Positions 3,157-6,238 of a DNA stretch of 6,238 bases are shown in pieces. Origin of the DNA: a virus (lineage: Duplodnaviria; Heunggongvirae; Uroviricota; Caudoviricetes). The translations under genes were made by a program, and so were the position numbers. The stretch lies in IMG/VR virus record IMGVR_UViG_2537561935_000009; one strand, 5' to 3'. How positions within the stretch are numbered: the first letter of the stretch is position 1; every line of letters starts with the position of its first letter. Below the pieces are notes generated by a model. It searched no databases and was not told where the DNA came from. It worked only from the letters and a program-made list of their open reading frames with translations.

Positions 3157-5259
3157 ATGAGTACCACAACACGAAAATTTAAAACCGTTATCACCGATAC
3201 GGGTGCAAAAAAATTAGCTCAGGCAGCCGCGCCAGATGGTAAGCCTGTCCGCCTGACTCATATGGCCGTGGGCGACGGTGGCGGCACGTTGCCCACACCA
3301 GACAGTAAGCAGACCCGTCTGGTGCATGAGGTGTGGCGACACACTGTTAATCGCGTCATCCTGGACGCAACACATCAGAACCACATTATTGCGGAGCTGG
3401 TTATTCCTCCTGAAACGGGCGGATTCTGGATCCGGGAAATTGGTGTATTTGATGAGCACGGCGATTTGATCGCGGTGGGCAATACTGCGGAAAGTTACAA
3501 GCCAGCCGTTGCCGAAGGATCCGGACGTGCACAAACATTTCGCACCATTCTGACCGTATCCAGCACTGCCACCGTGGCGCTTACCGTGGATAACACCATG
3601 GTGATGGCCACAGTGGATTACGTGAATGACAAACTGAAAGAACATGAACAGTCACGACGTCACCCGGACGCCTCGCTGACCGCAAAAGGCTTTGTTCAAC
3701 TCAGTAGCGCCACTAACAGCACGTCTGAAACGCAGGCTGCAACGCCGAAAGCAGTAAAAGCCGCGTATGACCTGGCTAACGCAAAATATACCGCTCAGGA
3801 CGCCACGACGGCACGAAAAGGGATAGTCCAGCTCAGTAGTGCCACCAACAGCACGTCTGAAACGCTGGCCGCGACACCGAAAGCGGTTAAGGTGGTAATG
3901 GATGAAACGAACAAGAAAGCGCCCTTAAACAGCCCGGCGCTGACCGGAACGCCAACAACACCAACTGCGCGACAGGGAACGAATAATACCCAAATCGCAA
4001 GCACGGCTTATGTGATGGCCGCGATTGCCGCACTTGTAGATTCGTCACCTGACGCACTGAACACGCTGAACGAGCTGGCGGCGGCGCTGGGCAACGACCC
4101 GAATTTTGCGACCACCATGACTAACGCGCTTGCGGGTAAGCAACCGAAAGATGCCACCCTGACGGCGCTGGCCGGGCTTGCTACTGCAGCAGACAGGTTT
4201 CCGTATTTTACGGGGAATGATGTTGCCAGCCTGGCAACCCTGACAAAAGTCGGGCGGGATATTCTTGCAAAATCGACCATTGCCGCCGTTATCGAATACC
4301 TCGGTTTACAGGAAACGGTAAATCAGGCTTCTGGAGCATTACAAAAAAACCAGAACGGCGCAGATATTCCGGGAAAAGATACCTTCACCAAAAATATTGG
4401 GGCCTGCCGCGCATATAGCGCATGGCTGAATATTGGTGGCGATAGTCAGGCCTGGACAACCGCACAATTCATTTCGTGGCTGGAGAGTCAGGGGGCATTT
4501 AACCATCCTTACTGGATGTGCAAAGGCTCATGGGCTTATGCAAATAATAAGGTCATTACAGATACAGGTTGCGGAAATATTTGTCTTGCAGGTGCTGTGG
4601 TGGAAGTTATTGGCACTCGCGGCGCAATGACCATACGCGTTACCACGCCGAGCACGTCCAGCGGCGGCGGAATTACTAACGCTCAATTCACCTATATTAA
4701 TCATGGTGATGCTTATGCTCCTGGCTGGCGACGAGACTACAACACGAAAAACCAGCAGCCTGCATTTGCTTTAGGGCAGACAGGAAGCAGGGTTGCAAAT
4801 GATAAAGCTGTTGGCTGGAACTGGAATAGCGGTGTTTATGATGCAGATATTGGTGGCGCAACAGCATTAATCCTCCACTTCAATATGAATACGGGGAGTT
4901 GCCCTGCCGTACAGTTCCGCGTGAATTACAGGAATGGCGGTATTTTTTATCGTTCAGCGCGTGATGGTTATGGATTTGAGGCTAACTGGTCAGAGTTTTA
5001 CACCACGACCCGCAAACCCTCTGCGGGAGATGTTGGTGCATACACGCAGGCAGAATGTAACTCAAGGTTTATTACAGGTATTCGCCTTGGCGGTCTGTCA
5101 TCTGTTCAGACATGGAATGGTCCCGGCTGGTCTGACAGGTCAGGTTATGTCGTTACGGGTTCAGTTAACGGAAACCGTGATGAATTAATTGATACAACTC
5201 AGGCAAGGCCAATTCAGTATTGCATTAATGGGACGTGGTATAACGCGGGGAGTATTTAA
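3157..5259 (+). CDS. Tail fibre protein (P2 gpH-like), with a conserved N-terminal baseplate-attachment/shaft region (about aa 1-382) and a compositionally distinct C-terminal receptor-binding region (about aa 383-700)
   Basis: 700-aa ORF starting 2 nt after the I stop. The N-terminus (MSTTTRKFKTVITDTGAKKLAQAA…VRLTHMAVGDGGG) and two copies of the phage tail fibre repeat (…QLSSATNSTSET.AATPKAVK…) are gpH-like. The C-terminal third is AT-richer and Trp/Gly/Cys/Asn-rich, as expected for a swapped receptor-binding module. Confidence 0.92.
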   Translation: MSTTTRKFKTVITDTGAKKLAQAAAPDGKPVRLTHMAVGDGGGTLPTPDSKQTRLVHEVWRHTVNRVILDATHQNHIIAELVIPPETGGFWIREIGVFDEHGDLIAVGNTAESYKPAVAEGSGRAQTFRTILTVSSTATVALTVDNTMVMATVDYVNDKLKEHEQSRRHPDASLTAKGFVQLSSATNSTSETQAATPKAVKAAYDLANAKYTAQDATTARKGIVQLSSATNSTSETLAATPKAVKVVMDETNKKAPLNSPALTGTPTTPTARQGTNNTQIASTAYVMAAIAALVDSSPDALNTLNELAAALGNDPNFATTMTNALAGKQPKDATLTALAGLATAADRFPYFTGNDVASLATLTKVGRDILAKSTIAAVIEYLGLQETVNQASGALQKNQNGADIPGKDTFTKNIGACRAYSAWLNIGGDSQAWTTAQFISWLESQGAFNHPYWMCKGSWAYANNKVITDTGCGNICLAGAVVEVIGTRGAMTIRVTTPSTSSGGGITNAQFTYINHGDAYAPGWRRDYNTKNQQPAFALGQTGSRVANDKAVGWNWNSGVYDADIGGATALILHFNMNTGSCPAVQFRVNYRNGGIFYRSARDGYGFEANWSEFYTTTRKPSAGDVGAYTQAECNSRFITGIRLGGLSSVQTWNGPGWSDRSGYVVTGSVNGNRDELIDTTQARPIQYCINGTWYNAGSI
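3685..3903 (+). repeat. Two tandem copies of a ~27-aa phage tail fibre repeat within H (unit 1 at 3685..3771, unit 2 at 3817..3903; period 132 nt)
   Basis: Direct comparison of the H translation: KGFVQLSSATNSTSETQAATPKAVKAAYD versus KGIVQLSSATNSTSETLAATPKAVKVVMD, with clearly related nucleotide sequence. Confidence 0.85.
4289..4314. other. Putative crossover site for a Gin/Hin/Cin/Pin-family serine DNA invertase (gix/hix-like 26-bp imperfect dyad) inside the tail fibre gene
   Basis: Sequence TTATCGAATACC-TC-GGTTTACAGGAA: two 12-bp half-sites (TTATCGAATACC and, reverse-complemented, TTCCTGTAAACC) around a central dinucleotide. The right half is identical to the gix/hix-type half-site as I recall it. 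It lies within codons V378-E386 of H, exactly at the compositional break between the constant and variable parts. Confidence 0.6.
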
Positions 5260-5261
5260 TT

Positions 5262-5795
5262 ATGATGCACTTAAAAAACATTACTGCTGGCAACCCTAAA
5301 ACAAAAGAGCAATACCAGCTAACAAAGCAATTTAACATCAAATGGCTTTATTCAGATGATGGAAAAAACTGGTATGAGGAACAAAAGAATTTCCAGCCAG
5401 ACACTTTGAAAATGGTCTATGACCATAACGGCGTTATTATTTGTATTGAAAAGGATGTTTCAGCAATTAATCCGGAAGGCGCAAGCGTCGTTGAATTACC
5501 TGATATTACAGCAAATCGCCGTGCTGACATTTCGGGTAAATGGATGTTCAAAGATGGCGTAGTGGTAAAGCGAACTTATACCGAGGAAGAGCAGAGGCAG
5601 CTGGCGGAAAATGAAAAGCAAAGCCTGCTACAGCTCGTCAGGGATAAAACCCAGCTATGGGACTCACAGCTACGGCTGGGCATCATTTCCGACGAGAATA
5701 AACAAAAATTAACCGAGTGGATGCTCTATGCGCAGAAAGTCGAATCTACAGACACTTCCGGTCTGCCAGTAACGTTTCCCGAACAACCAGAATGA
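5262..5795 (+). CDS. tfa: Tail fibre assembly protein (Tfa; P2 gpG / Mu U family chaperone)
   Basis: 177-aa ORF starting 2 nt after the H stop, with GGGGAG about 10 nt upstream. Conserved Tfa-type central block …[24 protein letters not shown]… and C-terminal …PVTFPEQPE; size matches P2 gpG. Confidence 0.9.
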   Translation: MMHLKNITAGNPKTKEQYQLTKQFNIKWLYSDDGKNWYEEQKNFQPDTLKMVYDHNGVIICIEKDVSAINPEGASVVELPDITANRRADISGKWMFKDGVVVKRTYTEEEQRQLAENEKQSLLQLVRDKTQLWDSQLRLGIISDENKQKLTEWMLYAQKVESTDTSGLPVTFPEQPE

Positions 5796-5798
5796 GAG

Positions 5799-5825
5799 AA
5801 GGCCCGCTATCGGGCCTTAATTTTT
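5799..5825. terminator. Intrinsic terminator hairpin between the convergent tfa genes
   Basis: AAGGCCCG (5799..5806) / loop CTAT / CGGGCCTT (5811..5818), an 8-bp GC-rich stem, followed by TTTTT at 5821..5825. It sits in the 28-bp gap between the + tfa stop (5793..5795) and the minus tfa stop (5824..5826). The U-tract is good only for the + transcript. Confidence 0.55.
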
Positions 5826-6238
5826 ACTCTGGTTTTTGTGGCCATTCAGGATTTGCCGTATCCACACGGCTGACCAGAACACTGTAGCGTTCCCATGCTT
5901 CCAGTCGGCTGTGGTCCTCATCCGTTGCCATATTCAGCCTTACTGCACGCTCTAGTAGTTGAATGACTGATTCAGCATCAGCAAGAAGTCTGGCTTTCTG
6001 ATTTTCTACCTGCTGCTGTAATTCCTCTTCCGTATAAATACGTTTAATAACTGCGCCATCCTTAAACATCCAGTTACCAGAAATGTCGGCACGTCGGTTA
6101 GCAGTAATATCCGGCACTTCAACAACACTTAATCCATCCGGTCTGATAGCTGTTACATCCTTTTCCACATAGCGGATGATGTTATCTTTGTCATACGCTA
6201 ATTTTATCGTGTCATCCTGGAAGTTCTTTTGTTCCTCA
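5824..6238 (-). CDS. Second, divergent tail fibre assembly protein (Tfa-prime), convergent with tfa; N-terminus lies beyond the window end
   Basis: The minus-strand reading frame is open from the window edge (6238) to TAA at 5824..5826. Translating by hand upstream of the ORF-track GTG at 6166..6168 gives …[61 protein letters not shown]…, which aligns with residues ~39-100 of the + strand Tfa (…[61 protein letters not shown]…). The true start is therefore upstream of the window; the 114-aa ORF-track call is a truncation. Confidence 0.85.

Follow-up and report, generated by a model that had tools for sequence, protein, structure and literature searches.

A Mu-type invertible tail-fibre segment is predicted at the right end of a draft contig from a P88-like prophage of Escherichia coli MP021552.7

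Why should a phage tail module carry two tail fibre assembly genes that face each other, tail to tail? The question is raised by the right end of the stretch of DNA analysed here (the window, 6238 bp), which is the entire draft contig AQCL01000165.1 (assembly GCA_000354615.2, E. coli MP021552.7). The window holds a P2-type module in the order tail completion gene S, baseplate genes V, W, J and I, fibre gene H and the two tfa genes. Its closest relatives are P88-like prophages and phages, which share 95–97% nucleotide identity over the constant part of the window (1–3892/4327) and are found in hundreds of complete E. coli genomes. By this similarity the window can be assigned to a P88-like prophage (Xuanwuvirus, Peduoviridae), of which it covers the module for baseplate and tail fibre. 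At both window ends the assembly breaks inside a phage gene (tail completion on the left, the second tfa gene on the right), and these breaks probably reflect repeats common to other prophages or plasmids of MP021552.7. An Rfam scan of the whole window found no RNA element. In the Gin/G system of Mu and the Cin/C system of P1, a serine invertase recombines two inverted sites and swaps the fibre C-terminus together with its own chaperone. We propose, with a probability of about 0.88, that the 3′ part of H in this P88-like prophage lies inside a Mu-type G segment and that Gin-type inversion switches fibre and chaperone.

The tail fibre gene H (3157..5259, plus strand) is an ORF of 700 aa with matches to the Pfam families Phage_tail_fib and Phage_fiber_2; a match to gp37_C is weak and lies under the Pfam cut-off (E 0.00059, 20.4 versus 22.5 bits). 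Similarity to the P88-like relatives delimits a constant N-terminal part of P2/P88 type (3157–4300), and protein comparison identifies 4303–5256 as the variable C-terminal part, an orthologue of the variable part of Mu S′, with which the last 318 aa of H share 97% amino acid identity. Left of 4289 the identity with Mu falls to ~54%, while the P88-like relatives hold 95%. From 4289 to 6141 the window matches the G segment of Mu and D108 at 92–94% of nucleotides across S′–U′–U, a distance of ~1.85 kb, and from 4289 to ~5890 it is 92–100% identical to the Mu G segment in the G(−) orientation. The preliminary description had compared the two facing genes to the U/U′ arrangement of the Mu G segment, and the match over S′–U′–U shows that the comparison reflects homology; the region is a homologue of the G segment, beyond mere likeness of layout. 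A 44-aa fibre repeat (132-bp period, Pfam Phage_fiber_2) is present in H in two copies (3666–3761 and 3798–3890). E. coli 4600 and P88 have three copies, and their H proteins are 744 and 764 aa long as compared to 700 aa here.

A gix-type crossover site of 26 bp, located by alignment at 4289..4314 on the plus strand, forms the predicted left boundary of the invertible segment. The sequence is TTATCGAATACC-TC-GGTTTACAGGAA (whole site TTATCGAATACCTCGGTTTACAGGAA), with the core dinucleotide at 4301–4302. The site was aligned with both boundaries of the Mu G segment and with both sites of E. coli 4600, and it equals Mu gix at 24 of 26 positions. It is located in frame within H, coding for ..VIEYLGLQET.., and it is the single match in the window (0 expected by chance). 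All four of the P88-like relatives examined (L001, L004, L005 and L006) have the same left site. Its position coincides with the onset of the Mu homology and with the boundary between the constant and variable parts of H. Because the site sits at the boundary of the Mu homology, the cassette would start within H at 4301/4302; the region had been described as the left half of a G-segment-like cassette beginning at 5262, and the cassette stands but its start moves to the crossover site in H. The portion of the G-type segment that falls in the window, as delimited by the comparisons, is 4301..6238 and comprises Sv′, U′, a central hairpin and most of an inverted U-type gene. The window would show the state equivalent to Mu G(−). 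In this state the plus-strand gene, which had been named tfa, is the U′ orthologue, and the minus-strand gene, named tfa-prime, is of the U type.

The plus-strand gene tfa (5262..5795) is an ORF of 177 aa that starts 2 bp past the stop codon of H. The encoded tail fibre assembly chaperone shares 96% amino acid identity with Mu U′ over 177 aa. The minus-strand gene tfa′ (5824..6238) is an open frame for a U-type chaperone whose 5′ end is cut by the contig end. From its stop codon (5824–5826) the frame runs for 137 codons without a stop to the window edge (5824–6237), 137 of the expected 175 codons; it had been called intact to the edge, which is correct for these 137 codons, but the edge is a contig break and the gene is cut there. 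The Tfa′ protein shows 75% amino acid identity to Mu U; with the U proteins (175 aa) of P1-like plasmids the value is 98%. Both Tfa proteins match PF02413 (Caudo_TAP) over profile positions 2–131 of 131, with E-values of 1.2e-35 and 1.3e-34 (122.9 and 119.6 bits, cut-off 22.1). An alignment of the two, proposed as a check in the preliminary description, gives 53% identity over 139 aa (E 5e-50), and the account of two Tfa homologues facing each other across a 28-bp gap proves exact in its coordinates.

The gap between the convergent stop codons (28 bp, 5796..5823) contains a GC-rich hairpin at 5799–5818 (AAGGCCCG-CTAT-CGGGCCTT). The folding energies are −24.4 and −23.0 kcal/mol for the two strands (z ~ −5.4), and none of 200 shuffled sequences was as stable. 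On the plus strand the hairpin is followed by the T-run AATTTTTAC. On the minus strand no T-run lies past the hairpin, and CTCTCATTC is found there instead. As the T-run is missing after the hairpin on the minus strand, a classical intrinsic terminator is convincing as a prediction only for the plus-strand gene. The gap had been described as containing a terminator; the strong hairpin with its T-run agrees with this for the plus-strand gene, but the minus strand lacks the T-run. After inversion, the alternative transcript may be terminated with lower efficiency or with the help of other factors. In the D108 record, rho-independent terminators are annotated on both strands at the homologous place. 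The gene anatomy, the Mu homology, the left crossover site and the hairpin are all seen directly in the window.

The right half of the cassette can be followed in the closest relatives, E. coli 4600, E. coli O103:H2 12009 and P88. In these three the DNA past tfa′ contains the remainder of tfa′ (175 aa in total), then a fibre ORF, a crossover site and a recombinase gene. The alternative fibre ORF is on the minus strand; it is C-terminal and promoter-less, without an N-terminus of its own. The inverted crossover site (..AAACC-GA-GGTTT..) lies past this ORF in each of them. A second crossover site is present in L001, L004 and L006 and in Mu, and in the relatives the right site is directly flanked by a recombinase of 195–199 aa; the copy of E. 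coli 4600 and Mu Gin share 82% identity. The preliminary description had predicted, for the DNA past tfa′, a promoter-less C-terminal fibre ORF ending at an inverted crossover site, and these predictions hold in all three. Inversion of three relatives in silico between the core dinucleotides joins the alternative ORF in frame to constant H, giving uninterrupted H frames of 725, 798 and 744 aa, and the start codon of the other tfa gene is located directly after the new stop codon of H. In P88 inverted in this way, the C-terminus of H and the N-terminus of Tfa are exactly as in the window.

The Citrobacter phage Shae_phiSM (L005, 12268–13047; site at 12966) has a more degenerate right site, GTTCTCGTAAACCGAGGTTTTAAATAA, and its annotation shows no CDS for an alternative fibre in the interval from tfa′ to the invertase gene, so that decay of the silent half is a possibility. 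The genes for tail tube and tape measure and the gpU-type gene of P88-like phages are located on the opposite strand (14079–18370 in L001, 14195–16458 in L004 and 14298–18122 in L006) and converge on the invertase gene. In P2 they come after G and share its strand.

Inversion of the segment is seen when related prophages are compared. P88 holds the Sv′–U′ block of the window in the silent, invertase-proximal position and in the opposite orientation. Between the O145 strains RM8843-C1 (L011) and RM8988-C1 (L010) a segment of 3.08 kb is inverted, with flanks that are 99.95% identical on the left and 96.6% identical on the right, and the alignments overlap at the equivalent of 4285–4327 of the window. 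Several genes of RM8843-C1, the recombinase included, are annotated as frameshifted, which may be due to sequencing errors. Among complete E. coli genomes, 126 carry the junction H-constant/gix/S′ and 136 the junction invertase-side/gix/S′. At the level of the prophage family the segment occurs in both orientations. Relatives thus show the right half, the invertase gene and, in sister strains, the two orientations, and their H frame remains open when the segment is inverted; the interpretation of the facing tfa pair as part of an invertible cassette is supported by these comparisons. The tail-fibre loci of P2-like E. coli prophages have been shown to invert by sequencing and PCR, and in the P2-like prophage tail-fibre loci of EPEC E2348/69 both states were found experimentally to coexist in culture (PMC4272514). 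The paper on P88 makes no mention of inversion or of an invertase (PMC5285337).

Taken as a mechanism, a serine invertase of the Gin family, encoded just outside the segment, would recombine two inverted 26-bp gix-type sites, one being 4289–4314 in H and the partner lying past the contig end. In the G(−) state the N-terminal part of H, with the promoter upstream, would be fused to the S′-type receptor-binding C-terminus. The S′-type fibre would be co-transcribed with its cognate U′-type chaperone gene tfa (5262–5795), the two forming the expressed pair, and the central hairpin would halt transcription ahead of an antisense read into the silent tfa′ (5824–6238). Upon inversion the other C-terminus and tfa′ would be expressed and the host range would shift. 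For the MP021552.7 prophage itself, we infer an intact right half and actual switching, and likewise the receptors of the two fibres. A chance tail-to-tail duplication with no role in switching was also considered, and is ruled out by the gix-type site, the Mu homology and the flipped relatives.

The silent chaperone gene raises a further point. Sliding identity and alignment place a mosaic junction within tfa′ at 5885..5910. To its left the sequence is of Mu/P88 type. The U gene of P1-like phage-plasmids matches 5901–6238 at ~99.7% identity, as against just 60–76% for Mu and the P88-like relatives. The ETEC1720 plasmid, which is P1-like and has the typical C-segment layout, carries such a U gene (~99.7% identical to 5901–6238). 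For the longer region 5796–6238 the best matches in complete records, at 97.1–97.7%, are all P1-like plasmids or an integrated copy, and 97.7% was likewise the ceiling when complete genomes of E. coli, plasmids and phages were compared by BLAST. Exact scans of genome and metagenome contig collections with the 64-bp junction sequence gave 0 matches; the absence of the junction elsewhere neither proves nor disproves a chimera. A full-length P1-type U protein with the same rare YTEEEL variant (P0125) is found under accessions EMU61712.1 and EMU65190.1. Since these bracket EMU64342.1 of the window, in a span of 3478 numbers, the accession numbers alone make it very probable that one or both belong to the same genome. 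A P1-like plasmid is therefore probably resident in MP021552.7, with a U gene equal to the right end of the window. The DNA that follows the P1-type stretch in MP021552.7 may differ from that of the relatives, or the stretch may be foreign to the prophage. The preliminary description had allowed that tfa′ could belong to an unrelated adjacent element, such as the tail module of another prophage; this is ruled out for its 3′ end and the hairpin, which are collinear with the Mu and P88 cassettes, and only for the P1-type stretch 5901–6238 may it still apply, in the form of an assembly mis-join. The cassette reading is unaffected, because tfa′ would be a U-type chaperone gene from an invertible cassette either way.

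Two kinds of doubt have to be weighed, one about the cassette and one about its right end. The G-type segment could be a frozen remnant that no longer inverts in MP021552.7, with the invertase, the right site or the alternative exon lost or broken. Decay in some relatives would agree with this, as in the right site of Shae_phiSM and its lack of an annotated alternative fibre CDS, and so would the frameshifted genes annotated in RM8843-C1, if these are not sequencing errors. However, every part in the window is intact, the left site agrees at 24 of 26 positions with the functional Mu gix and is the same in four P88-like relatives, and both orientations have about the same frequency in the population. 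We therefore regard a frozen remnant as improbable and retain the switching cassette. The second doubt is whether the ~340 bp at 5901–6238 were wrongly joined during assembly, through a shared stretch of ~29 bp, from the U gene of a co-resident P1-like plasmid. In that case the prophage would have an ordinary tfa′ of P88/Mu type, the cassette reading would hold and the mosaic tfa′ would not exist. The sharp change at 5885–5910, where Mu/P88-type sequence gives way to ~99.7% identity with P1-like plasmids, the lack of the 64-bp junction in genome and metagenome contigs, the ceiling of 97.7% for 5796–6238 among complete E. coli genomes, plasmids and phages, the P1-type U with the YTEEEL variant very probably from the same genome, as the accession numbers suggest, and the contig end soon after the switch all fit such a mis-join. 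Yet an assembler normally breaks at a junction of this kind and does not continue for 340 bp into the second copy. Natural mosaics of tfa are also common, with a different right half in every relative examined, and the contig break is equally explained by a genuine repeat common to the plasmid. A mis-join is a real possibility but a somewhat doubtful one.

The same switch of type at 5885–5910 and the same probable co-residence of a P1-type U with the YTEEEL variant, as suggested by its accessions, would also be expected of a genuine recombinant, in which homologous recombination or gene conversion with a co-resident P1-like C segment replaced the cassette from ~5900 onwards. The silent half of the prophage switch would now be of the P1 type. 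The 89–94% identity between the two elements over 5501–5900 offers ample homology, and the varying right halves among P88-like relatives point to frequent cassette exchange; against this, the junction is found in no other record searched. We give a genuine recombinant an even chance. The fuller statement, that the mosaic in tfa′ is real and results from a recent in-vivo exchange between a co-resident P1-like C segment and the P88-like G-type segment, is put forward tentatively, at slightly less than even odds.

As an invertible cassette, the region would be a textbook case of bet-hedging, where a flip of ~3 kb keeps two receptor-binding fibres with their chaperones and hence two host ranges. 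The reading corrects the annotation of the contig: H would be an S′-type fusion in the G(−) state, and the minus-strand Tfa would be its silent alternative. An invertible cassette would also account for the breaks that draft assemblies show here. What is mildly new is limited to the P1-type sequence within the silent chaperone gene. If real, this sequence would be a tangible example of co-resident temperate phages exchanging tail-fibre modules, with the silent half of a host-range switch overwritten by that of an unrelated phage in the same cell. Tail-fibre mosaicism in general is already well documented.

The feature as such, a Mu G segment in a P2-like virion module, is already known, and both the P88 phage family and invertible fibres in P2-like prophages are already in databases and literature. 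With Mu and D108 the window shares the gene order, the convergent U′/U pair, the 26-bp site (24/26), the central hairpin and the 3′ end of U. It differs from them in that the constant fibre part and the whole virion module are of P2/P88 type and in that the silent chaperone gene is of P1-plasmid type over its 5′ two-thirds (75% amino acid identity to Mu U overall). The C segment of P1 and P1-like phage-plasmids, inverted by Cin, has the same layout of fibre, tfa, inverted tfa, alternative fibre and recombinase. However, the rest of the segment in the window is just 64–94% identical to the P1-like plasmid (ETEC1720), and the surrounding genes are of P2 type and not of P1 type. The EPEC E2348/69 P2-like loci and the e14 Pin/P segment are alike in principle, that is, in serine-invertase switching of a fibre C-terminus and its chaperone; one of the EPEC loci is a shufflon of several segments, while each relative examined here has one segment and two sites. 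The closest likeness is with P88 and other Xuanwuvirus prophages of E. coli and Citrobacter, which are 96–97% identical in nucleotides over S–V–W–J–I and over constant H. P88 also carries this G-type cassette along with an invertase, with the Sv′–tfa block of the window in the flipped position. Differences from the window lie in the orientation and in the number of 44-aa repeats (two in the window, three in P88); the silent right half varies between members, and the 5′ part of tfa′ in the window is unlike that of any listed member.
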